NCBI RefSeq assembly: GCF_965228225.1
Contig: NZ_OZ245801.1
Coordinates: forward strand, 3,957,281-3,989,280
DNA: 32,000 nt
Direction: 5' to 3'
Source: Reyranella sp.
Lineage (GTDB): Bacteria > Pseudomonadota > Alphaproteobacteria > Reyranellales > Reyranellaceae
Below, piece by piece: positions 5,789-19,262 of the stretch. The first letter of the stretch is position 1; each line of letters starts with the position of its first letter. The notes beneath the pieces are model-generated. The model worked only from the letters and a program-made list of their open reading frames with translations. It had not been told where the DNA came from and did no database searches. Position numbers and translations under genes: made by a program.

Positions 5789-6316
5789 CTACTTGCCCTT
5801 CAGCTTGAAGTCGCGCCACAGCACGATGCCGCTGGCATTGTCGAGCGCCATGCCGTCGAGCTGCTTCCTCAGCTCATAGGCCGTCGGGCGCCAGATGAGC
5901 GTGCTCTCGCCGCTCGCGCCCTCGAAGCGGCCGGTGCCGCCCGTCAGCCTGAACGTGCCGCGACAGCCGACGAGCTCGTAGCCGGCGCACTCCCACTCGC
6001 CCCAGGCGGTCGCGCCGTCGTACGCCGTGAAGGTGCAGGCACCCGCCGCGCTGGTCTTGCGGCTGCCCTGGTCGATCTTCGACGACAGGGCGCAGCCGAC
6101 GCGACCCGCTTGCTGCGGCCCCTCGTCGGTCTCGATGAACATTGGCCCGGCGAGGCTCCCCGCCACGACGAGCTGCTTCTCGGCGGCCCGCACGACCGAT
6201 CCATTGGCGAGCACCACCGCGAAGGCATTGAAGGTCTGTGTCTCGTCCTGCGCGACGGCCGGAGCGGCGGACAGGAGAACCAGGGCGCCCGCGAGGGCGC
6301 GGCTGAACATCGTCAT
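5789..6316 (-). CDS. secreted protein, unknown function (GGTGRFEGASG motif, dirigent/AOC-barrel-like?)
   Basis: Internal start MTMFSRALAGALVLLSAAPAVAQ (signal peptide) at 6316. Five Cys in the mature part. 8-nt gap to the upstream gene. Confidence 0.65.
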   Translation of the reverse strand: MTMFSRALAGALVLLSAAPAVAQDETQTFNAFAVVLANGSVVRAAEKQLVVAGSLAGPMFIETDEGPQQAGRVGCALSSKIDQGSRKTSAAGACTFTAYDGATAWGEWECAGYELVGCRGTFRLTGGTGRFEGASGESTLIWRPTAYELRKQLDGMALDNASGIVLWRDFKLKGK

Positions 6317-6324
6317 GGGCCGCC

Positions 6325-6789
6325 TCACTTGAAGTCGATGATGACGGCATCGGCGCCGAGCGACACGGCCAGGCCCTGGCGGCGCGTCTTCAGGTCGATC
6401 ATCACGCCGTTGGTGTTTTCGAGCCACATCTCGCCCTTGCCCTTGTCGCCGTAGGCCGTGCCGTAGCGCGCCTGGCCGTAGGCGCCCGGGAATTGGCGCA
6501 GCTCCTTCAGATTGTAGACGTCGCCATAGGCTTCCATCTTCGAGACGCCGAACCCGCCGACACCAAGGCCGCCGACCGAGAACCGGTAGCTGCGGCCTTC
6601 ATAGTGCAACGTGCCACTGCCGACATTGCCGCTACCGAAGAAGGCCACCTGGACCTGCTCGATGTTGACGGTTCCGGACTTGACCCGCTGCTGGGCGATC
6701 GCCGGCGCCGCCAGCACCGTTCCAACCACCCCGACGGACCCGATCAGCGCCTGTCGGCGCCCCAGCAGCCCTGATTTCTTAACGCTCAT
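6325..6789 (-). CDS. Tat-signal exported Gly-rich protein, unknown function
   Basis: Internal ATG 6789 with GGGGAGAG RBS. Twin-arginine signal GLLGRRQALIGSVGVVGTVLAAPAIA. Family not recognised with confidence. Confidence 0.65.
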   Translation of the reverse strand: MSVKKSGLLGRRQALIGSVGVVGTVLAAPAIAQQRVKSGTVNIEQVQVAFFGSGNVGSGTLHYEGRSYRFSVGGLGVGGFGVSKMEAYGDVYNLKELRQFPGAYGQARYGTAYGDKGKGEMWLENTNGVMIDLKTRRQGLAVSLGADAVIIDFK

Positions 6790-9675: not shown

Positions 9676-10683
9676 TCACGAATCCGCCGTGAACCCGATC
9701 TTCTTCACGATCGGACCCCAACGGTCGTAGCTCTCCTTGAGGAGCGCACCGAGTTCCTGCGGGGTCGAGGACTTCACCTCGAGGCCCATGACGGCGAGGC
9801 CGTCGATCACGTCCTTCTGCGCGAGTGCGGCGCGCAGCGCTTCGTTCGCGCGCATCACGACCGGCGCCGGCGCGCCGCCCGGGGCGAAGAAGCCGAACCA
9901 TTCGGAGAAGACCAGGTCCTTGTAGCCCTGCTCGGCGAAGGTCGGGACGTTCGGTGCAAAGCGGCTGCGGGTCGCGCCCGAGACGCCGAGGAGGCGCGCC
10001 TTGCCGGCGGCGACCTGCTGGGTGAACTCGCCGACCGGGCCGGACACGGCCTGGATCTGGCCGCCGATCATGTCCTGCACCGCGGGCTGCGTGCCGCGAT
10101 AGGCGACATGCTTCAACTCGACGCCGCCCGCCTGGCCCAGCAGCACGCCGATGAAGTGCGGCACCGAACCGGAGGCCGGCGAGCCGTAATTGGCCTTGTC
10201 GGGGTTGGCCTTGCACCAGGCCAGGAACTCCGGAATGTTCTTCACGCTCTCGGGCACGGCCGGGCCGACGCAGAAGCCGAAGTCGAAGGTGCAGGCGAGC
10301 GTTACCGGCGTCACGTCGGTGAAGGCGTCGTAGGCCAGCTTCTTGTAGATGTGCGGATAGATCATCAGCATCGAGGCCGGCGTCTGCAGGATCACGCTGC
10401 CGTCGGTCGCCGCGCCCTTCATCGACTGGATGGCGATCTGGCCGCCGGCGCCAGGCTTGTTCTCGACGATCGCCATCTTCGTGTAGGAGGTGCCCTTCAG
10501 CCCCTCGGCGACGCGGCGGCACAGCGTGTCGGACGTGCCGCCCGGCGGGAATCCGGTGACGATGCGCACGGATTCGAGCGGCGCGGTGCCCTGCGCGCCG
10601 GCGCGGCCCGCGAGTCCCAGGGTGGCGAGCACTGCAGCAGCGCCCGAAGCGCGGACGAACCCGCGGCGGTTCTGGTCGTTCAT
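9676..10683 (-). CDS. Bug family (TctC-like) tripartite tricarboxylate transporter substrate-binding protein
   Basis: Internal ATG 10683 with GGGAGGA RBS. Tat-type signal MNDQNRRGFVRASGAAAVLA. Bug hallmarks IVTGFPPGGTSD, ENKPGAGG and GSPASGSVPH. Confidence 0.9.
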   Translation of the reverse strand: MNDQNRRGFVRASGAAAVLATLGLAGRAGAQGTAPLESVRIVTGFPPGGTSDTLCRRVAEGLKGTSYTKMAIVENKPGAGGQIAIQSMKGAATDGSVILQTPASMLMIYPHIYKKLAYDAFTDVTPVTLACTFDFGFCVGPAVPESVKNIPEFLAWCKANPDKANYGSPASGSVPHFIGVLLGQAGGVELKHVAYRGTQPAVQDMIGGQIQAVSGPVGEFTQQVAAGKARLLGVSGATRSRFAPNVPTFAEQGYKDLVFSEWFGFFAPGGAPAPVVMRANEALRAALAQKDVIDGLAVMGLEVKSSTPQELGALLKESYDRWGPIVKKIGFTADS

Positions 10684-10768
10684 CTCATTCCTCCCGGTCG
10701 GTTCTTGTGGGCGGAATGTCGCTGAAACGCGACGTGCCGCCAAGCCCAACCGACGCTTTCCGGCAGCA

Positions 10769-12133
10769 CTATTTGCGAATCGCCGCGTCGAGTTCGGGCA
10801 GGGGGAAGTCCTTCCAGCCCGCGACCTCGGAAACTTCCGGGAACTCCTCGCCGAACGGCTTGGTGGCATCGATTCCCACCGAGGACGAATAGCCGCCGTC
10901 GGTATAGGGATCGAGCGGCGCGGCGGCGGTGCGGTCGACGACGAAGACATCCTGGCTCGGCTTGACGCGGAACGACTGCGCCCATTCGACCTCGGCGGCG
11001 TTGCGGATGTCGATGTCGGGATCGACGGCGATCACCCACTTGGGATGGAGGTTGCCGGCCATGGTGGCGAGGATGGCCTGCCGTGCCTCGCCCTCGTAGC
11101 GCGGCTTCATGGCGATCACGACATAGGTCTGCACGCCGCCCGAGCTGTTGATCGAAATGTCCGAGAGGGTCGGGAACTGCGCCTGGAGCTGGCGCAGGAT
11201 CGAGGTCTCGAAGGGGATCTGCTTCAGGACATGGTTCTCGGTGATCGGCTTGCCGGTCAGCAGACCCTGGAAGATCGCGTTCCTGCGATGGGTTATCGCC
11301 GTGATCCGGGCGACAGGCTTGGGCGATGCCGGCGTGTAGTAGCCGGTATATTCGCCCAGCGGGCCTTCCATCTTCTGGGTCTTCGTATCGACGACGAACT
11401 CGATCACGATCTCGGCCCAGGCCGGCACCTTCAGATCGTTGCTGACGGCTTTGACCAGTTCGACCGGCGCGCCGCGCAGGCCGCCGGCGACGAACCAGTC
11501 GTTGGTCGCGTCGCTCGACTGCACCTGGCAGGAGAACATGGTGAGCGGATCGACGCCGATGGCGACCGCGCCGTGCAGTTCCTTCCCCATCGCGACGGCA
11601 TGGGCCATGTTCTTGCCGAAGCGATGGTTCGGCGCGGAAAACACGCCCAGCTCCCTCGGCCCATGCACCTGAAATCGGTAGTTGCCGATGTCGGGAATGC
11701 CGCTCTCGGGATTCTCCGACACCACGATCCCGGCAGTGATGTAGGGGCCGCCATCCTTGGGACTGTAGATCGGCACCGGCAGCTTGGTCACGTCGATCGA
11801 ATCGCCGGTCAGCACGACTTCCTGGCAGGGCGCCGTGCCCTTGAAGTCGACGGGACCCACCGGTTCGCCGATGCCATTCAGCACCCTGTCATGGATCGTC
11901 TGCTCGGTGGCCTCGAACGCCTTCAGCGCGAGCCGGCGGTTGCCGTAGACGCCGGCCACCAGCGGGAAGTCCGTCCCCGTCTGCGTGAACAGCAGCGCCG
12001 GCCCCTGGACCGCGCTCGTCCTGGCGAGCGCCCTGGCGATGTCGTACCTGGGCGAAACGGGACGTGCGATCTCGACGAGTTCGCCCGCATTCTTCAGTTC
12101 CGTCAGGAAGGCGCGCAGATCCTGATAGGGCAT
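10769..12133 (-). CDS. UbiD family (prFMN-dependent) decarboxylase, paralogue 1 (about 454 aa)
   Basis: N-terminus YQDLRAFLTELKNAGELVEI and core motif MEGPLGEYTGYY. ATG 12133 has GAGGA 10 nt upstream. The track start 12139 is a TTG. Confidence 0.9.
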   Translation of the reverse strand: MPYQDLRAFLTELKNAGELVEIARPVSPRYDIARALARTSAVQGPALLFTQTGTDFPLVAGVYGNRRLALKAFEATEQTIHDRVLNGIGEPVGPVDFKGTAPCQEVVLTGDSIDVTKLPVPIYSPKDGGPYITAGIVVSENPESGIPDIGNYRFQVHGPRELGVFSAPNHRFGKNMAHAVAMGKELHGAVAIGVDPLTMFSCQVQSSDATNDWFVAGGLRGAPVELVKAVSNDLKVPAWAEIVIEFVVDTKTQKMEGPLGEYTGYYTPASPKPVARITAITHRRNAIFQGLLTGKPITENHVLKQIPFETSILRQLQAQFPTLSDISINSSGGVQTYVVIAMKPRYEGEARQAILATMAGNLHPKWVIAVDPDIDIRNAAEVEWAQSFRVKPSQDVFVVDRTAAAPLDPYTDGGYSSSVGIDATKPFGEEFPEVSEVAGWKDFPLPELDAAIRK

Positions 12134-12171
12134 GGTCAATCCGTCCTCGCGGTTCTCGGGTACAAAGGGTG

Positions 12172-13191
12172 ATGCGCAGACTGTTCGCCGACATCCATCG
12201 CCACGACATCGAGGCCGCCGTTCGCGTCGCGGCGGCGGTGGGCCTGCCGCTGCTGGCGCTGGACGCGATCGGTCGTCTCGATCTCGCCGTCTATGCCGCG
12301 TTCGGCGGCCTGGCGATGCTCTATGGCCATAGCGAGCCGGCGAAGAAGCGGGTCGAAAGCCAGATCGTCGCCGGCACGGGCCTGGTCGTTACCATGGCGG
12401 TCGCCATGGCCTGGTCCGCCTCGCAAGCCCCTCTCGCGGTGCTGGGCGCGCTGCTCGTCCTGACCGTGATCGCGGCCGTCACACTCGGCTCCGCGATGCG
12501 CTGGATACCGCGCGGAGAGATGTTCTTCGTGCTGGTACTGCTGATCATCGCGGCCATTCCCACGAAATGGGAAAGCCTGCCGCTCGCCCTCGCCGTCGGT
12601 GCGGGCGGCGCGGCCTTCTCGGTGCTGCTGGCGGTGATCAACGGCATCGGCGCGCTGCCCGGTGAGGAGAAACCCGAAGGATGGCGACGGCGCATCGCTT
12701 CGGGCTATGCCGACCTCGACCGCCGCCAGCATCTGGTCGTGCTGGCGGCCGCTACGCTCGGCGTGCTCGCAGCGTGGTCCCTGGCCCTGGCCCTGGCCCT
12801 GGGCATCGGCCATCCCTTCTGGGCGGCCGTCACCGTCGCCGCCCTGATGCCGGCGCTGGCCGCGAAAGAGGTCTGGCGCCGTGCCGTCCACCTGATGGTG
12901 GGCACGCTCGGAGGAGTGGCCATCGCCGCCCTGCTGTTCTCCTTCGAACCCGGCCCTCTCGCGCTGATCGCCATCATCGTGATTTGCCAGGCGGTCGCCG
13001 AAATCGCGGTCTCGCGCAACTACGGCGTCGCCCTGCTCTTCTTCTGTCCACTGGCCATCGGCATGAGCAACCTGAGCCGCGGCGCTCCCTGGCCGCCCAT
13101 CCTGGTGGACCGGGTGGCCGAGGCCGCGCTGGGCGTGGCGGTCGCCTTCCTCACGATCTTCGCAGGCCGCAGGATCCTCAAGGTGACCTGA
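12172..13191 (+). CDS. FUSC / aromatic-acid-exporter (ArAE)-like integral membrane protein
   Basis: About 340 aa and almost entirely hydrophobic helices. Contains GHPFWAAVTVAALMP, resembling the conserved FUSC motif. Start is ATG 12172 (GTG 12169 possible). The 5' extension in the track overlaps UbiD. Confidence 0.7.
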   Translation: MRRLFADIHRHDIEAAVRVAAAVGLPLLALDAIGRLDLAVYAAFGGLAMLYGHSEPAKKRVESQIVAGTGLVVTMAVAMAWSASQAPLAVLGALLVLTVIAAVTLGSAMRWIPRGEMFFVLVLLIIAAIPTKWESLPLALAVGAGGAAFSVLLAVINGIGALPGEEKPEGWRRRIASGYADLDRRQHLVVLAAATLGVLAAWSLALALALGIGHPFWAAVTVAALMPALAAKEVWRRAVHLMVGTLGGVAIAALLFSFEPGPLALIAIIVICQAVAEIAVSRNYGVALLFFCPLAIGMSNLSRGAPWPPILVDRVAEAALGVAVAFLTIFAGRRILKVT

Positions 13192-13213
13192 ACGGACGGC
13201 CGGCACGCGGCGC

Positions 13214-13591
13214 CTACTGGTCGGAGACCTGAAAGGGGATGTCACCCGCTTTGGCCTTCGTCCCCTGCACCGTGATCACCGCCCAGTGCAGCACGTAGTT
13301 GCCGGGCGGCAGGGTCGGCGCAGCGGCGAACAGCACTTCCGGGGCCGATTCCAGACGCGGGTGCAGGCGCTCGATCACCTTGTCGCCCTGCTTGATGACC
13401 AGGGTCGACTTGATGTGATCGACCGGCCGGTCGAAGCGCACGAAGAAGGCGCTGCTCTTGAGGCCGATCCGGGCATGGGCCGCCGGTGTCGACTCGAGCA
13501 CGTGGACCTCGCCCGACGGTTGCTGGGCGCGCACCGCGGAAGTCATCGCCGCCATCATCAGGACGGCGATCGCCAGGCGTCGCGTCATCAT
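13214..13591 (-). CDS. exported CopC-fold domain protein (non-canonical, predicted metal ligands missing)
   Basis: Signal MMTRRLAIAVLMMAAMTSAVRA. Aligns by eye to CopC/YobA (HVLESTPA...VRFDRPV...LPPGNYVLHWAVIT...IPFQV). Its ATG overlaps the UbiX stop (ATGA). Confidence 0.65.
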   Translation of the reverse strand: MMTRRLAIAVLMMAAMTSAVRAQQPSGEVHVLESTPAAHARIGLKSSAFFVRFDRPVDHIKSTLVIKQGDKVIERLHPRLESAPEVLFAAAPTLPPGNYVLHWAVITVQGTKAKAGDIPFQVSDQ

Positions 13592-14211
13592 TTGCCGCTC
13601 CGGCGCTTGGCGAGGGACGGCTTCTCCACGCCGGAGGGGCCGCTCCATCGCGGGAAGGTCTTGGTGTCGAGGCCGAACAGGTCGAGCACGCGCGCGACGG
13701 AATGCGTCACGATGTCGTCGACCGTCCTGGGCCGCGTGTAGAAGGCCGGCGACGGCACCGCGACGATGGCGCCCATCTCGGTGACGGCCAGCATGCTCTT
13801 GATGTGGCCGGCATGCAGCGGCGTCTCGCGGAACATCAGTACGACCCGCCGGCGCTCCTTCAGGCAGACGTCGGCGGCGCGGGAGACGAGCCCCGAGGTC
13901 ACCCCCGTCGCGATCTCGCTCAGGGTGCGCACCGAGCACGGCGCCACGATCATGCCCATCGTCTGGAACGAGCCGCTCGAGATCGACGCGGCAATATCGC
14001 CCGGCGCATAGACGTGATCGGCCAGCGCGCGCAGCTCCGAGGCCGACACATCGGTTTCGAGCGAGCGCGTCTGGTCGCCCGCCTTCGAGATCACGAGATG
14101 GCTCTCGATCTTCAGCGCCCGCAGCGCCTCGAGCACGCGGATGCCGTAGACCGTCCCCGACGCGCCGGTGATGCCGACCACCATGCGCCGAACGGGTTCG
14201 CTTGCTGCCAT
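13588..14211 (-). CDS. ubiX: UbiX family flavin prenyltransferase
   Basis: 207 aa. Has VVGITGASG, MGMIVAPCS and the LKERRRVVLMFRETPL pattern. RBS GAGGA overlaps the upstream stop. The track ORF is 5'-extended through UbiD2 in another frame. Confidence 0.92.
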   Translation of the reverse strand: MAASEPVRRMVVGITGASGTVYGIRVLEALRALKIESHLVISKAGDQTRSLETDVSASELRALADHVYAPGDIAASISSGSFQTMGMIVAPCSVRTLSEIATGVTSGLVSRAADVCLKERRRVVLMFRETPLHAGHIKSMLAVTEMGAIVAVPSPAFYTRPRTVDDIVTHSVARVLDLFGLDTKTFPRWSGPSGVEKPSLAKRRSGK

Positions 14212-14222
14212 TTTGATTGTCC

Positions 14223-15851
14223 TCAGCCGCCGGTCTTGATGTGGCGCGGGTCCGAGTGGTTCAGCGGCGCAGGCTTCGCCTCCCACGAGAACGGTGTGTC
14301 GGAGAGCGTGTAGCGGTACCACGGCGGATCGTTGCTGCGGCCGAGCCTGTGCCGCAGGTTGCCGAAGGCGCGGTAGAGCACCGGATAGGGCTGGCCGTGA
14401 TACTGCTTCAGGATGTCGTGCCAGGCGCGCGGCTCGGCGCGGATGAACGCCTCCATGTCCCCGGTCAGCTCGTCTTCCGTCATGATCTTCAGCCCGGCCG
14501 GCGGATCGCCGAGGTCGGTGACGGTGCTGCGCACGAACTCGTTGGGGTTCCACTCCGGTCCCAGCGGCACCGTGCAGTCCATGCCGATCTTGGAGGAAAT
14601 GCCGAGCGTCGTGCTCTTGGGATCGACGGTCATGGTGTTGAGCCCGTCGAGGCGCACCGTGTCCTTGTCCGGCATGTAACGGTAAGCCATGGCGGCCAGC
14701 ACGGCCTGGTCGTCCCAGATGTCGACGTCGGTGTCGAACACCATGGCGATCTTCGGAAGTCCCTGCTTGGAACAGGTCAGCATGATGCCCAGCGCCTGCT
14801 TGGAATCGCCGGCCCCCAGCGGATGGATCTTGGCGTAGGCGATGTTGGACAGGCCGCCCAGCGGACAGCGCACCTCGCGCACGTCGATGCCGCCCTGCTT
14901 CAGCCCGTTGAACAGGTCGGCCTCGATCGCCGGCAGCTGCAGCATGTTGTCGGTGTACCAGGGATGCAGCCCGCCGATCGTGCAATGCTGGAAGATGCCG
15001 CCCTTGCGGTAGGTCATCGCCTTCACCTTGAGGCGATAATTGTGCTTGATGCCGCCGCCGTACATGCCGGTGAACTCGCCGTACGGGCCCTCGTCGTAGA
15101 CCAGCCCCTCCAGCGCCATCAGCTCGCACTCGAGCACGATCTCGGCATTGGCCGGCACCATCACGTCGATGGTCTCGCACTTGATCATCTTCGCCGGCGC
15201 GCCGTAGAAGGCGCCCAGCACCTCGAAATCGTCGGTGTCGGTGGTGACGCCGACCAGCGCCGAAATCTTGTCGATGGTCGGACCGCCCAGCACGATCGCG
15301 ACCTCGAGATTCTGCCCCTTCGCCGCCGCCGCCATCGCGTGGATGCGCTGGCGGTGCGAGGTGCAGGTCATGTCGACCGACTTCTCGTTCTTCGTCCGGA
15401 ACATCGAGCGGTAGATGCCCCAGTCGTAGACGCCGGTGTCGGGATGCTTGCTGATGAAGAGATTGTCGTTGGTGTAGGCGTGGCCGTCGCGATCATGGTG
15501 CAGGAACAGCGGCAGGCGGGTCAGGTCGACATCGTCGCCCTTGAGGATCACCTCCTTGCAGGGCGCCGTCGTCACCGTCTCCCACTTCACCCGGCCCTTG
15601 GAGCGCGCCACCATCTCGAGGCCGGTCCGCGTCTTGTCGCAGCCCATGGCCCAGGCGAACATCTCCTGGTTGGAATAGGCGTTGGCCAGCACCGAGAACT
15701 CGGTGTCCTTGATCTTCTCGATCAGGACGGCCTTGGTCGGATTGGCCTCCATGAGCTTGGGAACCTGATCGACTCGCACTTCGTCGGTGATGCGCACGAG
15801 GAAGCCCGCTTTGTCCATCGCGTCGACAAAGTCGGAAAGGGACTGCTGCAT
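14223..15851 (-). CDS. UbiD family (prFMN-dependent) decarboxylase, paralogue 2, long form (542 aa)
   Basis: UbiD-like N-terminus MQQSLSDFVDAMDKAGFLVRI and core YDEGPYGEFTGMYGGG. Carries about 85 extra C-terminal residues relative to paralogue 1. ATG 15851 is preferred over 15905 because 15905 would overlap the upstream gene. Confidence 0.88.
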   Translation of the reverse strand: MQQSLSDFVDAMDKAGFLVRITDEVRVDQVPKLMEANPTKAVLIEKIKDTEFSVLANAYSNQEMFAWAMGCDKTRTGLEMVARSKGRVKWETVTTAPCKEVILKGDDVDLTRLPLFLHHDRDGHAYTNDNLFISKHPDTGVYDWGIYRSMFRTKNEKSVDMTCTSHRQRIHAMAAAAKGQNLEVAIVLGGPTIDKISALVGVTTDTDDFEVLGAFYGAPAKMIKCETIDVMVPANAEIVLECELMALEGLVYDEGPYGEFTGMYGGGIKHNYRLKVKAMTYRKGGIFQHCTIGGLHPWYTDNMLQLPAIEADLFNGLKQGGIDVREVRCPLGGLSNIAYAKIHPLGAGDSKQALGIMLTCSKQGLPKIAMVFDTDVDIWDDQAVLAAMAYRYMPDKDTVRLDGLNTMTVDPKSTTLGISSKIGMDCTVPLGPEWNPNEFVRSTVTDLGDPPAGLKIMTEDELTGDMEAFIRAEPRAWHDILKQYHGQPYPVLYRAFGNLRHRLGRSNDPPWYRYTLSDTPFSWEAKPAPLNHSDPRHIKTGG

Positions 15852-15876
15852 TGTCTGACCCGAATGAAGAGGAAAA

Positions 15877-16302
15877 TCAGGAATAGGCCGGTGCGGTCCT
15901 GCCATGCTCGGCGAAGGCCCTGAGGTGATGCAGCATCATGCCCCAGAGGGCATTGCACTTCTCGAAGTTGCCCTTCTGATGCGGCCAGCCGGAATGGGCG
16001 AAGGTGAGATGGACCCGGCCGTGCGGCGTCTGGCCGAGATGGAACGAAACGCTGGTGCCGGCCGCATCGCCTGGCCCGTCGACGCACTTCCAGACGATGG
16101 CGTCTGCTCCCTGCGACGCGACTTCCCAGACGAACTTCGGTCCGTCGGCATATTTCAGGGTCCACTGGCTCCCTACGCCCGCGCCGCCCGAGACCTCGGC
16201 CATGGTCCAGCCCTTGAGCCCCTGGAGGGTCGTGAGGGCTTCATGGACCTTGGCGGCATCCGCCTTGATGTTGACGGCGTGACGAAGAGCGTGATCGGAC
16301 AC
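15877..16302 (-). CDS. SRPBCC superfamily (AHSA1 / polyketide-cyclase-like) protein
   Basis: Pattern ...HAVNIKADAAKVHEALTT...GLKGW... is typical of AHSA1-type SRPBCC domains. GTG 16302 has GGGAGG 6 nt upstream. The track start ATG 16332 is the alternative. Confidence 0.7.
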   Translation of the reverse strand: MSDHALRHAVNIKADAAKVHEALTTLQGLKGWTMAEVSGGAGVGSQWTLKYADGPKFVWEVASQGADAIVWKCVDGPGDAAGTSVSFHLGQTPHGRVHLTFAHSGWPHQKGNFEKCNALWGMMLHHLRAFAEHGRTAPAYS

Positions 16303-16445
16303 AGTGCACCTCCCGAAAACCTTATCTGCCACGCGGGAATAGCGCGGCTAGCATGTGCGGCGGGACCTTATCAGTCAGGCTGAAGCGTTCAACTTCGAGC
16401 GTCCGGCCGAGCGAATACCGGCTTCCGAGGCCCCGAGTCCGCTCG

Positions 16446-16484: not shown

Positions 16485-16561
<77 letters not shown>

Positions 16562-16769
16562 TTTTACCCTTTGGAATCAATCTAATGCCCTCGGTGCTTT
16601 TGCACGGATCGGGCAGAGCGGCGCCACAAGAACCCTCGCGCGCTGGGGTACATCGCCGAGACGCGCGTTGTGACTCTGTTCCTTGCAACGAACCCCGTTC
16701 ACCTCTTATTGGCAGGTGATGTCTTCACCCTCTCCTCCTTTTGGATCGGCGGTTCACGCCGTTCCATGA

Positions 16770-17513
16770 GTGCACTTGGGGAATGTCAGTTTGATGTTTG
16801 GTTCTGCGTATTTCCTTGCAGGCGATTCGTTTCTCAAGAACACGGCTGTCGAGGATGCACTCCGGCCGCGGCTTGCGCCGTTCTTCTCGAACTGGATCGG
16901 CAGAAAGGAGATCAGAGTTCGGAGCGAGGAATCGCAATCGAACCTCACTGTATCGAAGCGCGTCGCCCTGTTGGAGAAACTGGTTCCAAGCAATGAGGAA
17001 GCAGGGCAGCAAGTCCTGATTGGAAGATCATCCGGCGGACGCGTGGCGTCTTTGTTTGCCATGCATCGGCCGGTTAAGGCGGTCATTTGCTTTGCTTACC
17101 CGTTCCGCCATCCGCGGAGTGTCCTGGAGCCGCTTCGCTTCAGCCACCTGGCCCATATCACGGTGCCGACGCTGATCTTCCAGGGGATGCGGGATAGTTA
17201 CGGAGCAATGGACATCACCGAGAACTACGCTCTTTCACCGGCTGTAACCGTAAGATTTGTAGACACCGACCACGATTTTGATTTGTCACCGTCCGAGTGG
17301 GACGTGGTTGCCCGGAAGGCAATGAAGTTCCTGGACAGCGTTGGGCAACGATTGCCGGCTGAGGGGTCGCGTTTCGACGAGGCCTTCTACCGGAGCACTC
17401 ATGCGGATGTGGCGGCGGCGATCGCCGCTGGGGAGTTCGTCTCCGGTGAACATCATTTCAACGTGAAGGGACGTAGTCAGGGGCGACGCTTCCGGCTTCT
17501 GGCCGACACTTGA
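16770..17513 (+). CDS. alpha/beta hydrolase (KANL3/Tex30-like family) with extra C-terminal module
   Basis: Core VLIGRSSGGRVASLF...CFAYPFRHP...VPTLIFQGMRDSYG...DTDHDF. Low GC and non-host codon usage (AGA, GTA, TTT). GTG start is uncertain and the usual N-terminal HGAG region is not evident. Confidence 0.7.
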   Translation: MHLGNVSLMFGSAYFLAGDSFLKNTAVEDALRPRLAPFFSNWIGRKEIRVRSEESQSNLTVSKRVALLEKLVPSNEEAGQQVLIGRSSGGRVASLFAMHRPVKAVICFAYPFRHPRSVLEPLRFSHLAHITVPTLIFQGMRDSYGAMDITENYALSPAVTVRFVDTDHDFDLSPSEWDVVARKAMKFLDSVGQRLPAEGSRFDEAFYRSTHADVAAAIAAGEFVSGEHHFNVKGRSQGRRFRLLADT

Positions 17514-17654: not shown

Positions 17655-19262
17655 TCAGAGACCGTGGTCCTCCCGCATCATCTCGGCGGCGCGTTCGCCG
17701 ATGACGGCGCAGGGGGCCTGGGTGTTGCCGGTGGTGACCCGCGGCATGATCGAGCCGTCGGCCACCCGCAGCCCGCTGACGCCGTAGACACGCAGCGTCG
17801 CGTCCACGACCGACATGTCGTCCCGCCCCATCCGGGCGGTGCCGCTCTGGTGCCAGTAGGTGACGGCGGCGTCGCGGATGTAGGCGTCGAGGTCCTCGCC
17901 CTTCACCTCGCCCGGCATGGCTTCGCCGGTGACGAAGGGACGGAAGGCCTGGGCGTTACCCAGGGCGCGGCAGAGCTCGATACAGGACGAGGCCGCCGTC
18001 ATGTCCCTGGCGTCCGACAGGAAGTTCGCGTCGATCGCCAGCGCCGCGGTCGGATCGGCGCTCTGCAGGCGCAGGCGTCCCCGGCTCTCGGGGTGGGCGA
18101 GGCCTGCGAACATCGTCCAGCCGTGGGCCGGCACGCCGCGCAGCGCCGTGCGTTCGCTCGGCACCGGGAACTCGACCTGGCAGAACAGCAGGTCGGGCGC
18201 GTCGAGGTCGGGCCGGCTCTTCCAGTACATCGTCGCCTCGCTGCCGCTGTTGCGGGGCGCCAGAGGCTCCGACAAGGCCCAGGTACAGCCGAAGGACACA
18301 TGGTCCTGTAGGTTGCGCCCGACCCCCGGCAGGTTCTGCACGAGCGGGATGCCGAAGCGCTCCAGCTGGCGACGCTCGCCGATCCCGGAATGCATCAGGA
18401 CCTTCGGCGTCTGGAGGGCGCCCAGCGACAGCACGACTTCCGTCCGCGCGCCGATGGTCATCGTCCGTCCGCCCTGCACGAGTTCGACCCCGGTCGCCCG
18501 CGTGCCCTGGAAGACGACCCGCTTCACGAGCGCGCCGGTGAGCACGGTCAGGTTCGGGCGATCGAGCCAGGGATGGACATAGGCGCGGTACAGCGACTGG
18601 CGGCGCCCGTCGCGCACCAGCATGTCGGTGATCGCCGCACCGCCCTCCTGCTCCATCATGCGCCCGTTGGGATGGTCGAACACGGGGATGTCGAGTTCGC
18701 GCGCGGCGTCGAGCATCGCGAGCGCGAGCGGGCTCGGCGAGGCAGCGGGCTGCACCCAGACCGGCCCTCCGGTGCCGCGATAGGCGGGGTCGGGATGGCC
18801 CTGCCAGTCCTCGATCCGGCGATAGAGGCCGAGCACGTTCTCGTAGCCCCAGCGCGGATCGCCTGCCTCCGACGCGAAGAACTCCCAGTCGCTCTTATGT
18901 CCCCGGGCCCAGACCATCACATTGATGCTCGACCCGCCGCCCAGCCCCTTGCCCATGGACATCGGGATCTCGCGGCCGTTGAGATGAGGGTTGGGTTCGG
19001 CCCGGAATCCCCAGTCGCGTTCGCCGCCGAGATTGGTGGGCCACAGGGCCGGGTTGAGGACGGCTTCGGCATCGTCGCTGCCGCCCGCCTCGAGCAGCAG
19101 GACCTGGACGTCGGCATTCTCGGCCAGCCGCCGCGCAATCACCGACCCGGAGGAGCCGGCGCCGCACACGATGAAGTCGTAGCCGGGCCGAAGCGCCGCC
19201 GTCAGCCGCGCCTGGTTCTCCCGCCCGCGCCGGACGGAGTCTGAAGCATCATAGTCGTTCAT
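17655..19262 (-). CDS. GMC family FAD-dependent oxidoreductase (choline-dehydrogenase-like)
   Basis: 535 aa. Has DFIVCGAGSSGSVIARRLAE (GxGxxG) and GMC signature GKGLGGGSSINVMVWARG. C-terminal active-site region includes YWHQSGTARMG. Confidence 0.92.
   Translation of the reverse strand: MNDYDASDSVRRGRENQARLTAALRPGYDFIVCGAGSSGSVIARRLAENADVQVLLLEAGGSDDAEAVLNPALWPTNLGGERDWGFRAEPNPHLNGREIPMSMGKGLGGGSSINVMVWARGHKSDWEFFASEAGDPRWGYENVLGLYRRIEDWQGHPDPAYRGTGGPVWVQPAASPSPLALAMLDAARELDIPVFDHPNGRMMEQEGGAAITDMLVRDGRRQSLYRAYVHPWLDRPNLTVLTGALVKRVVFQGTRATGVELVQGGRTMTIGARTEVVLSLGALQTPKVLMHSGIGERRQLERFGIPLVQNLPGVGRNLQDHVSFGCTWALSEPLAPRNSGSEATMYWKSRPDLDAPDLLFCQVEFPVPSERTALRGVPAHGWTMFAGLAHPESRGRLRLQSADPTAALAIDANFLSDARDMTAASSCIELCRALGNAQAFRPFVTGEAMPGEVKGEDLDAYIRDAAVTYWHQSGTARMGRDDMSVVDATLRVYGVSGLRVADGSIMPRVTTGNTQAPCAVIGERAAEMMREDHGL

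Follow-up and report, generated by a model that had tools for sequence, protein, structure and literature searches.

Organization of the locus

The locus described here lies on a stretch of 32,000 nucleotides (nt) of Reyranella sp. (GCF_965228225.1, NZ_OZ245801.1, 3,957,281 to 3,989,280 of the forward strand; guanine-plus-cytosine (GC) content 66.6%), which was analysed over its whole length and is referred to as the window. Between positions 16302 and 13214 the minus strand carries four tightly packed genes, encoding in order of transcription an SRPBCC protein, a divergent long member of the UbiD decarboxylase family (UbiD2), a UbiX flavin prenyltransferase and a CopC-like protein (Table 1). 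The pairing of UbiD with UbiX is already known. What appears to be new is an uncharacterised, highly conserved UbiD2 clade with a unique C-terminal domain, and comparisons across about 150 loci in five phyla, as counted here, point to a dedicated and previously undescribed SRPBCC accessory of the UbiD/UbiX system.

The SRPBCC stop codon (TGA, 15879-15877) is followed by 25 nt and the UbiD2 ATG at 15851. The UbiD2 stop codon (TGA, 14225-14223) is overlapped by GAGGA at 14224-14220, with the UbiX ATG at 14211 following after 11 nt, and the UbiX TGA (13590-13588) shares the ATGA at 13591-13588 with the CopC-like ATG (13591-13589). A first-pass annotation, made from the letters of this stretch, had described the same four genes and spacings, had read the GAGGA as a ribosome-binding site overlapping the UbiD2 stop and had placed a tRNA-Arg divergent from the operon; the coordinates, and ARAGORN for the tRNA, agree on each point. 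Its domain identities (AHSA1, UbiD and UbiX) are matched by family scores above the cut-offs, and its view of UbiD2 and UbiX as a decarboxylase dependent on prenylated flavin mononucleotide (prFMN) and its flavin prenyltransferase is borne out by the family assignments. It had set the span at 13214-16332; genes and order stand, and the start of the first gene is revised, GTG 16302 being more likely than GTG 16332 because GGGAGG lies 6 nt upstream and the product then matches the 141-amino-acid (aa) orthologues. For UbiD2, the start at 15851 is favoured over an in-frame upstream ATG at 15905 because 60 relatives begin with MPQQSL or MQQSL. A weak consensus scan found no terminator-like site on the minus strand inside the operon, and no sigma-70-like promoter was found in a scan that says little for an alphaproteobacterium of 67% GC.

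Table 1. Genes of the operon and adjoining features, in window coordinates
Feature	Position	Strand	Basis and remarks
SRPBCC protein (AHSA1-type), 141 aa	15877..16302	-	Pfam AHSA1; open reading frame extendable to GTG 16332
UbiD2, divergent long UbiD-family decarboxylase, 542 aa	14223..15851	-	Pfam UbiD_N, UbiD, UbiD_C
UbiX flavin prenyltransferase, 207 aa	13588..14211	-	NCBIfam NF004685, Pfam Flavoprotein
CopC-domain protein, 125 aa, signal peptide	13214..13591	-	Pfam CopC
FUSC_2 membrane protein (fusaric-acid-resistance / aromatic-acid-exporter superfamily), ~339 aa	12172..13191	+	Pfam FUSC_2 75.1
UbiD1, conventional-length UbiD-family decarboxylase, 454 aa	10769..12133	-	TIGR00148
tRNA-Arg(CCG)	16485..16561	+	ARAGORN; upstream boundary, outside the system

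Conservation and mobility of the SRPBCC-UbiD2 pair

A scan with UbiD2 across one genome per species returned 80 loci with orthologues at 68-99% identity. The alphaproteobacterial loci are from Reyranella, Chelatococcus, Xanthobacter, Aquabacter, Ancylobacter, Kaistia, Neoroseomonas and Acidisoma; the others are from many Mycolicibacterium and Mycobacterium and from Antrihabitans (Actinomycetota), a Binatia metagenome-assembled genome and Singulisphaera (Planctomycetota). The UbiD2 proteins of Reyranella genomes are 95-99% identical to that of the window. Two loci are truncated on the upstream side; among the 78 informative ones, 75 have a same-strand SRPBCC gene immediately upstream of UbiD2. 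In Mycobacterium sp. ST-F2, M. llatzerense and M. brisbanense (L072, L073 and L080) UbiD1 abuts UbiD2, with a gap of 8 nt in L073, and no SRPBCC gene is adjacent, and in L169 there is no SRPBCC gene and a major facilitator superfamily (MFS) gene precedes UbiD2. Conservation of the SRPBCC gene beside UbiD2 orthologues had been set beforehand as a test; it held in these genomes, and a reciprocal search of metagenomes agrees.

For the reciprocal search, a profile built from an alignment of 22 diverse SRPBCC orthologues recovered 80 metagenome loci (39-95% identity), 75 of them with enough downstream sequence. UbiD2 lies no more than 150 nt downstream of the SRPBCC gene in 67 of the 75; the order is SRPBCC-UbiX-UbiD2 in three, and a fourth (L159) ends inside UbiX. 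A different UbiD stands beside the SRPBCC gene in two (L120 and L118), and no UbiD adjoins it in L115 and L150, which are near-identical and represent one lineage. Over all loci the gap between SRPBCC and UbiD2 has a median of 26 nt (n=144 junctions), and because the junction recurs in 144 loci the adjacency is beyond chance. No convincing SRPBCC-UbiD2 fusion was found over all loci, the only candidate (L151) being a fragmentary contig. Since the neighbours of the SRPBCC gene are nearly always UbiD2 or another UbiD, this SRPBCC subfamily is essentially dedicated to UbiD systems.

The gene order around the pair can be grouped generally into three common types. The first, with UbiX on the opposite strand followed by UbiD1, SRPBCC and UbiD2, includes 22 loci, all mycobacterial. 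The second, SRPBCC, UbiD2, UbiX and CopC, then FUSC on the opposite strand and UbiD1, includes 16 loci and is confined to the Reyranella type. The third, UbiD1 on the opposite strand followed by FUSC, SRPBCC, UbiD2 and UbiX, includes eight loci from Ancylobacter/Xanthobacteraceae, Neoroseomonas and Acidisoma. The order UbiD1-SRPBCC-UbiD2 occurs in mycobacteria, planctomycetes and Binatia, and isolated cassettes of this kind with gaps of 7-20 nt and unrelated neighbours are seen in M. wolinskyi, Planctomicrobium and a 226-kb metagenome contig. In the gammaproteobacterium Pseudofrancisella the order is UbiD1-UbiX-UbiD2-SRPBCC, and at one locus FUSC lies beside SRPBCC-UbiX-UbiD2 with flanking integrases. 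A plasmid search gave a single match, Methylobacterium nodulans pMNOD02, in which SRPBCC is present among insertion sequence (IS) elements and hypothetical genes. The SRPBCC-UbiD2 pair, which sits among IS elements and integrases, is a conserved, mobile unit with shuffled gene order in Alpha- and Gammaproteobacteria, Actinomycetota, Planctomycetota and Binatia.

The conserved synteny makes it very probable that SRPBCC and UbiD2 are functional partners. Pairwise distances in a mirror-tree comparison correlate at r = 0.75-0.88, a value that is uninformative as all the genes follow one phylogeny. Neighbourhood clustering found no conserved catabolic pathway beside the pair; it yielded vertically inherited mycobacterial genes (uvrA, USP and MBL-fold), sporadic Amidohydro_2 genes, and DUF2390.

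Exchange of UbiD2 for VdcC and VdcD

The two metagenome loci with a different UbiD are informative about what the SRPBCC protein is paired with. In L120 (5001-7795) the order is SRPBCC-UbiX-VdcC-VdcD, and both Vdc proteins pass their family models (VdcC 672.8 against a cut-off of 650, VdcD 95.3 against 30). In L118 (2392-~4600) the order is SRPBCC-VdcC-VdcD, the proteins being of the same type by sequence. A neighbour-joining tree places the two SRPBCC proteins in different subclades, each among UbiD2-linked sequences, and therefore two independent partner swaps took place. The L120 protein keeps 24 of 24 conserved SRPBCC positions and the L118 protein 20 of 24, including all 13 that are invariant in 152 sequences.

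Since SRPBCC also pairs with VdcC/VdcD, its role is not tied to the C-terminal domain of UbiD2. The role would instead be tied to the cofactor that all UbiDs have in common, or to a class of substrate shared by UbiD2 and VdcCD.

The SRPBCC protein

The SRPBCC protein passes the Pfam AHSA1 model (PF08327; 29.5 against a cut-off of 22.1). Its AlphaFold2 (AF2) model, with a predicted local distance difference test (pLDDT) score of 86.5, has a helix-grip topology of seven strands and a long C-terminal helix. Using this model in Foldseek, the nearest structure is the Aha1-domain protein 2m89 (template modelling (TM) score 0.81, 30% identity), DynU16 is found at 0.82 and CalU16 is also matched. The matches run from Aha1-domain proteins of unknown function through DynU16/CalU16 to the ligand-binding PR-10 and PYL proteins.

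At an overall identity of about 40%, 13 residues are 100% conserved in 152 orthologues: W32, F57, W59, W71, C73, G76, G78, T83, H103, W106, C116, N117 and W120. Six of them (W71, C73, H103, W106, C116 and W120) are kept even in the very divergent Pseudofrancisella copy. Judged from strand and helix periodicity, the invariant residues should face the cavity. They form a strongly constrained site that includes two invariant Cys and one invariant His, and the persistence of C73, C116 and H103 even in the most distant copy hints at chemistry instead of passive binding.

Such a site could belong to an enzyme of a step preceding or following decarboxylation, e.g. a tautomerase, a cyclase or the catalyst of a thiol-dependent reaction, acting on the same metabolite. 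SRPBCC-fold enzymes exist, among them the polyketide aromatase/cyclases and norcoclaurine synthase, and the conservation of two Cys, a His and an Asn against so low an overall identity, with C73, H103 and C116 persisting as described, would suit a catalyst. However, no similarity to any catalytic SRPBCC subfamily was detected (Pfam Polyketide_cyc2 reaches 16.7, its cut-off being 27.4), and the closest structures belong to proteins of unknown function. We consider a catalytic role quite improbable.

Alternatively, the SRPBCC protein could be a carrier of substrate or product, or a specificity partner, that binds the aromatic acid or its more hydrophobic, toxic decarboxylated product and exchanges it with UbiD2. 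Ligands enclosed by a helix-grip fold are as a rule aromatic or hydrophobic, and the closest structural matches are either ligand-binding proteins or Aha1-domain proteins from structural genomics. The Trp-rich invariant set, if it lines the cavity as predicted, could together with R96 hold an aromatic carboxylate. FUSC_2, of the aromatic-acid-exporter superfamily, is a frequent neighbour, and UbiD2 has been replaced both times by hydroxyarylic-acid decarboxylases of the VdcC/VdcD type, which fits a shared phenolic substrate. There is also precedent in CoxG and Coq10/PasT, SRPBCC couriers that bring a hydrophobic aromatic ligand to their own enzyme system, CoxG and Coq10 shuttling quinones to their enzymes and Coq10/PasT binding ubiquinone (PMC13525633). 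Set against this, invariant Cys, Cys and His residues are unusual in a passive aromatic pocket, thousands of other UbiD decarboxylases acting on similar acids do without such a partner, and the SRPBCC gene is absent from some loci. A carrier role is somewhat doubtful, but nearly as likely as the cofactor role considered below.

Two loci bring the SRPBCC fold close to a flavin-binding one. In L170 a small gene of the PNPOx_N type (FMN-binding split barrel; 5898-6398) lies directly upstream of SRPBCC-UbiD2-UbiX. In L164, a Xanthobacteraceae genome, a 392-aa AHSA1+PNPOx_N fusion (12678-13856) is encoded 3 kb away from the cassette, in the company of ArsR and MFS genes. These may reflect a link of AHSA1 domains with flavin-binding domains, or coincidence.

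UbiD2 and its distant relatives

UbiD2 passes all three Pfam models of the UbiD family (UbiD_N, PF20695, 33.7; UbiD, PF01977, 169.2; UbiD_C, PF20696, 70.0), which together cover residues 10-426. Its AF2 model matches HmfF, HudA, VdcC, AroY, UbiD and Fdc1 in Foldseek at E = 1e-29 to 1e-32, and by sequence its closest relatives in the PDB are HmfF, VdcC and AnInD (E ~1e-31 to 1e-36). The best PDB match, HmfF (6h6x), shares ~24% identity over only ~428 aligned columns. UbiD2 is a divergent UbiD member, as it falls below the TIGR00148 subfamily cut-off (231.8 against 244.85).

The residues R148, E254 and E259 are invariant in 80 UbiD2 sequences and align with the catalytic residues of HmfF, VdcC, AnInD and E. 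coli UbiD; we take this Arg and the E-x4-E motif to be equivalent to R173, E277 and E282 of Fdc1. In UbiD1 the catalytic R, E and E are invariant as well (65 sequences), so that both UbiDs keep an intact catalytic Arg/Glu/Glu set. The Mn2+ that anchors the prFMN phosphate is canonically bound by Asn, His and Glu (N168, H191 and E233 in Fdc1). The His is invariant in the 80 UbiD2 and 65 UbiD1 sequences. The two other ligand positions are Asp throughout both sets (D143 and D208 in UbiD2, D150 and D214 in UbiD1), whereas all five structurally characterised relatives aligned, including HmfF, E. coli UbiD, VdcC and AnInD, have Asn and Glu. The Asp/Asp site could be a variant rather than a loss, since Asp might still bind a metal. 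It was also considered as a trait linked to SRPBCC and rejected; as it is present in UbiD1-like proteins without an SRPBCC neighbour (P0350, P0370), it is a feature of a larger clade.

Beyond the part covered by the known UbiD structures, UbiD2 has a clade-specific C-terminal domain of ~100 aa (residues ~436-542) with the motifs PR.W, GQ.Y, LR..LGR and D.PWYRYT. AF2 models it confidently as three helices (459-502) and a small hairpin. No sequence match to it was found in the PDB, and a search of 1.84 billion cluster representatives gave 79 matches, all UbiD2-type sequences and fragments. Averaged over comparisons of Alphaproteobacteria with the other sampled phyla (mainly Actinomycetota), identity is 70% for UbiD2, 54% for UbiD1, 54% for UbiX and 45% for SRPBCC. 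The UbiD2 clade is tight, divergent and unusually conserved.

Members of the family (P0012-P0120, P0254 and others) are labelled in public sources '2,5-furandicarboxylate decarboxylase 1' or '4-hydroxy-3-polyprenylbenzoate decarboxylase'. These labels look like over-annotation, because both fail curated cut-offs and residue checks. According to the first label, the operon would belong to an hmf-type furan pathway in which UbiD1 or UbiD2 is the HmfF 2,5-furandicarboxylic acid (FDCA) decarboxylase, UbiX is HmfG and the GMC oxidoreductase encoded at 17655-19262 is HmfH. In favour, HmfF is the top PDB match for each of the two UbiDs, many family members carry the name FDCA decarboxylase at JGI, and an acyl-CoA ligase gene also lies nearby. 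However, the identity of UbiD2 to HmfF is low, as given above, and at the positions of R304 and R331 of PtHmfF, which we take to bind the distal carboxylate of FDCA, UbiD1 has Phe and Gln and UbiD2 has Ile and a gap. The GMC enzyme is generic, closer to choline and alcohol oxidases than to hydroxymethylfurfural (HMF) oxidase, and lies beside the cassette in Reyranella only. There is no hmfABCDE-like set in the window, and scanning 30 of its open reading frames against Pfam gave no match to a molybdenum-dehydrogenase family (e.g. furoyl-CoA dehydrogenase HmfABC). HmfF was rejected on these grounds, and a furan pathway is very improbable.

According to the second label, UbiD2 would be the 4-hydroxy-3-polyprenylbenzoate decarboxylase of the ubiquinone pathway, with SRPBCC as a Coq10/PasT-like carrier of the polyprenyl substrate. 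The E. coli-type ubiquinone UbiD was rejected on its equivalog model (PRK10922), on which UbiD2 scores 113.5 and UbiD1 220.3 against a cut-off of 788. The module is present in Mycolicibacterium and Planctomycetota, which use menaquinone; it is also found on a plasmid and beside integrases, and its distribution is sporadic and not lineage-wide. Apart from the naming by some sources, this reading can draw on the ubiquinone-binding SRPBCC proteins Coq10/PasT (PMC13525633) and on the absence of canonical UbiD from some alphaproteobacteria (PMC10626278). We regard it as barely credible.

UbiX and the companion genes

UbiX is assigned by NF004685 (242.8 against 188), TIGR00421 (231.7 against 108.9) and Pfam Flavoprotein (135.6). 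In 63 of the 80 genome loci UbiX and UbiD2 are no more than 6 kb apart, the position of UbiX being variable, and the SRPBCC gene is directly upstream of UbiX in at least six loci. A DUF2390 (PF09523) gene is the immediate same-strand upstream neighbour of UbiX in 26 of the 80 genome loci, which belong to Actinomycetota, Chelatococcus and Binatia, e.g. L023 4720-5316, L024 10423-10956, L051 960-1448 and L062 3484-4020; about 23 of these loci are mycobacterial. DUF2390 always accompanies a UbiX transcribed separately from UbiD2 and is absent from the window. No functional literature on it was found, and it may be another UbiX-linked accessory gene.

UbiD1 passes TIGR00148 (297.3 against 244.85), and its best PDB match is HmfF (6h6v, E = 3e-71). 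In ~64 of 78 genome loci it is no more than ~6 kb from UbiD2, and relatives at ~60% identity occur in other contexts without SRPBCC or UbiD2. Pairs of FUSC_2 and UbiD1 occur in 34 genome loci, spread over several alphaproteobacterial families, and FUSC_2 adjoins SRPBCC-UbiX-UbiD2 even without UbiD1 (L168). In the window the FUSC_2 gene converges on the operon, immediately downstream of it, and diverges from UbiD1. The first-pass annotation was right to include SRPBCC in the operon; UbiD1 and FUSC_2, its frequent companions, had been overlooked.

UbiD1 (minus strand, ATG 12133) and FUSC_2 (plus strand, ATG 12172) start divergently from either side of a 38-nt spacer (12134-12171), so that their promoters must overlap or sit within coding regions; a mechanical list of open reading frames shows the two genes as seemingly overlapping. 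The divergent pair is missing from the close Reyranella-type relatives L001, L005 and L007, in which TctC comes directly after UbiX or CopC. FUSC_2/UbiD1 is a presence/absence polymorphism of a two-gene unit.

The frequency of UbiD1 raises the question of whether UbiD1, SRPBCC and UbiD2 assemble into a single heteromeric UbiD (de)carboxylase, perhaps one for an aromatic substrate that is poorly activated or very hydrophobic. About 80% of loci have UbiD1 within 6 kb, and the compact UbiD1-SRPBCC-UbiD2 arrangement with gaps of 7-20 nt recurs in Mycolicibacterium, Planctomicrobium, Singulisphaera, Binatia and the 226-kb metagenome contig. The conserved extra C-terminal domain of UbiD2 could be a docking surface. 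Precedents are the phenylphosphate, benzene and naphthalene carboxylases; complexes that join several UbiDs to additional subunits are documented among anaerobic carboxylases (PMC12016498). Nevertheless, many loci (L109, L113, L137, L168 and L170) have SRPBCC-UbiD2(-UbiX) without UbiD1 within 5-8 kb, and the close Reyranella relatives just named lack the FUSC-UbiD1 pair. In the window UbiD1 forms a separate transcription unit, UbiD1-like proteins occur in other contexts, and SRPBCC also pairs with VdcCD. Membership in the phenylphosphate carboxylases was rejected, the two UbiDs scoring 127 and 137 on the alpha model (cut-off 564.6) and 85 and 180 on the beta model (cut-off 469). A heteromer of this kind is unlikely.

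The CopC-like gene had been counted among the accessory genes of the operon, an assignment that did not survive. The gene is confined to Reyranella-type loci and missing even from some of these (L005, L007). Its product passes Pfam CopC (29.6 against 23.3) and fails NCBIfam copper_CopC (22 against 95) and YobA (26.1 against 129). CopC binds copper through a His at its mature N-terminus and through a D-x-H motif. Here, as read from the sequence, the predicted cleavage site of the signal peptide and the first His beyond it are separated by seven residues, and in the only PDB match, a weak one (5icu, E = 0.96), QGT is aligned opposite the DGH of 5icu. Given its signal peptide, the protein is probably exported. 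Synteny and the missing copper ligands rule the gene out as a system component, and it is a lineage-specific local passenger.

Surrounding genes

Downstream, a gene for a TctC/Bug solute receptor comes after UbiD1 on the same strand, an order seen in Reyranella-type loci only. The listed open reading frame (9676-10950) overlaps the 3' end of UbiD1 by ~180 nt, and the true start is probably further downstream, because the Pfam domain begins at residue 144. On the upstream side, beyond the tRNA, lie a lower-GC alpha/beta hydrolase gene, the GMC oxidoreductase gene and a MarR gene. The stretch 16600-17513, across the Abhydrolase_11 gene (16770-17513) after tRNA-Arg(CCG), has a GC of 0.565-0.58 against a window mean of 0.666 and may be a small foreign insertion at the tRNA. 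The acyl-CoA ligase gene is also near the operon, and the remaining genes of the window are miscellaneous acyl-CoA, SDR and transport genes.

Proposed role of the SRPBCC protein

Taken together, the operon would be the Reyranella version of a self-contained, horizontally mobile, prFMN-dependent module that is likely to be an aromatic-acid (de)carboxylase. UbiD2 and its dedicated AHSA1-type SRPBCC protein would form the invariant core, UbiX would make prFMN, and UbiD1 and FUSC_2 would be frequent companions and the CopC-like protein a local passenger. The lack of a conserved catabolic neighbourhood, the association with FUSC_2 and the replacement by VdcCD fit a one-step handling or detoxification of an aromatic acid. 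In the cell the module probably detoxifies a carboxylic acid that is either hydroxy-aromatic or heteroaromatic.

In such a module the SRPBCC protein would work directly with the decarboxylase as a small-ligand-binding accessory. The roles suggested for it in the first-pass annotation, binding of substrate or product, or maturation, are plausible. As a tentative assignment, the ligand may be prFMN: SRPBCC would take up the hydrophobic, oxygen-sensitive cofactor from UbiX and shield it, mature it or pass it on to UbiD2 and, at loci that have one, to UbiD1. The one ligand known to be common to all UbiDs is prFMN, and a role in handling it is favoured because the same SRPBCC subfamily, with its conserved residues kept, is attached to VdcC/VdcD in L120 and L118. 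It is further favoured by the position of SRPBCC directly upstream of UbiX in some loci, and by the chemistry that the survival of C73, C116 and H103 suggests. The absence of the SRPBCC gene from L072, L073, L080 and L169 is in keeping with a helper rather than an obligate subunit. The hosts named above are mostly aerobes. In an aerobic setting free prFMNH2 goes to a dead-end radical (PMC13040415), which again favours a cofactor role.

Both accessory families characterised in UbiD operons handle the cofactor, which also speaks for such a role: in a paper of December 2025 from the laboratory that defined prFMN, the UbiDX accessories listed are LpdD, a chaperone that binds prFMNH2, and PhdC/YclD, a maturase with the fold of HpaC-like flavin reductases (PMC13040415). 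The role of SRPBCC would be analogous to that of the LpdD/VdcD chaperone and the PhdC/YclD maturase. The first-pass annotation knew of no AHSA1-type SRPBCC accessory of UbiD, and in open-access full text no literature linking UbiD with an SRPBCC protein was found, nor any paper in which UbiD or UbiX occurs together with AHSA1, Aha1, polyketide cyclase or Bet v; the paper just cited names LpdD and PhdC/YclD only. A 2026 review of bacterial START/SRPBCC proteins has no mention of decarboxylases or flavins (PMC13525633).

Several points weigh against prFMN as the ligand. The ligands documented for SRPBCC proteins, in the literature (PMC13525633) and among the Foldseek neighbours, are substrates, including quinones, polyketides, flavonoids and hormones. 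VdcD is also present in L120 and L118, and a PNPOx-like gene precedes SRPBCC in L170, so that a second cofactor helper would be partly redundant where one of these is already there. We know of no flavin-binding SRPBCC protein. In addition, both swaps to VdcC-type enzymes would be explained equally well by a phenolic acid common to UbiD2 and VdcCD, with SRPBCC binding the substrate or product.

UbiD enzymes are wanted as reversible (de)carboxylases for CO2 fixation and aromatic-compound conversion, and many are inactive in heterologous expression because prFMN is not loaded or matured; the helper proteins LpdD and PhdC are a recent focus of the field. The SRPBCC protein would be either a new cofactor-handling protein or a substrate-delivery subunit. 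It is doubtful, yet worth stating, that it adds a third class to the prFMN-handling proteins, unrelated in structure to LpdD/VdcD and to PhdC/YclD; as such it could be a carrier shielding prFMNH2 between UbiX and UbiD, or a thiol-dependent oxidative maturase acting through the invariant Cys pair and His. If so, it should be transferable from one UbiD clade to another, in line with the VdcCD-linked copies, and could serve to activate recalcitrant UbiDs. Either way, the pair offers a concrete, testable lead on how UbiD enzymes become activated.

Comparison with known systems

One close likeness in layout is to the non-oxidative hydroxyarylic-acid decarboxylases VdcBCD/BsdBCD/LpdBCD (UbiX-type B, UbiD-type C and small D), each a compact stand-alone UbiX and UbiD operon with one small conserved accessory and no catabolic pathway around it. 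Membership in VdcBCD was rejected for the window, as UbiD2 (205.3) and UbiD1 (276.2) are far from the VdcC cut-off of 650 and no gene for VdcD (Zn-ribbon type) is present. VdcD is a ~70-aa Cys4 protein, whereas the accessory here is a helix-grip SRPBCC protein of ~140 aa, and UbiD2 has its extra C-terminal domain.

HmfF/HmfG share the pairing of UbiD with UbiX, and HmfF is the best match for UbiD1 and UbiD2 in sequence and structure. However, identity to UbiD2 is 24%, the FDCA-binding residues are not kept, the furoate pathway is absent here, and we know of no SRPBCC protein in the familiar hmf clusters. PpcABCD and the benzene and naphthalene carboxylases resemble the module in having two UbiD paralogues and a small non-UbiD protein. 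They differ in that the Ppc alpha and beta scores are far under the cut-offs, the hosts of the present module are mostly aerobes, UbiD1 is dispensable in many loci, and no phosphatase or ATP-dependent partner is found here.

PhdABC, the phenazine-1-carboxylate decarboxylase of Mycolicibacterium fortuitum, likewise consists of UbiD, UbiX and a small accessory encoded by three genes in environmental actinobacteria. Its accessory boosts the UbiD enzyme and stands outside the pathway chemistry, which for SRPBCC is a proposal made by analogy. UbiD2 matches PhdA only distantly (7pda, E = 1.2e-22), and PhdC has a split-barrel flavin reductase fold and is reported in Actinomycetota only (86 sequences; PMC13040415), in contrast to the five phyla of SRPBCC.

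CoxG and Coq10/PasT differ in their partner enzyme and ligand, a sequence relation beyond the fold is undetectable, and the Cys, Cys, His signature is found on the side of the protein described here. They are nonetheless like it in being small stand-alone SRPBCC proteins encoded with a specific enzyme system.

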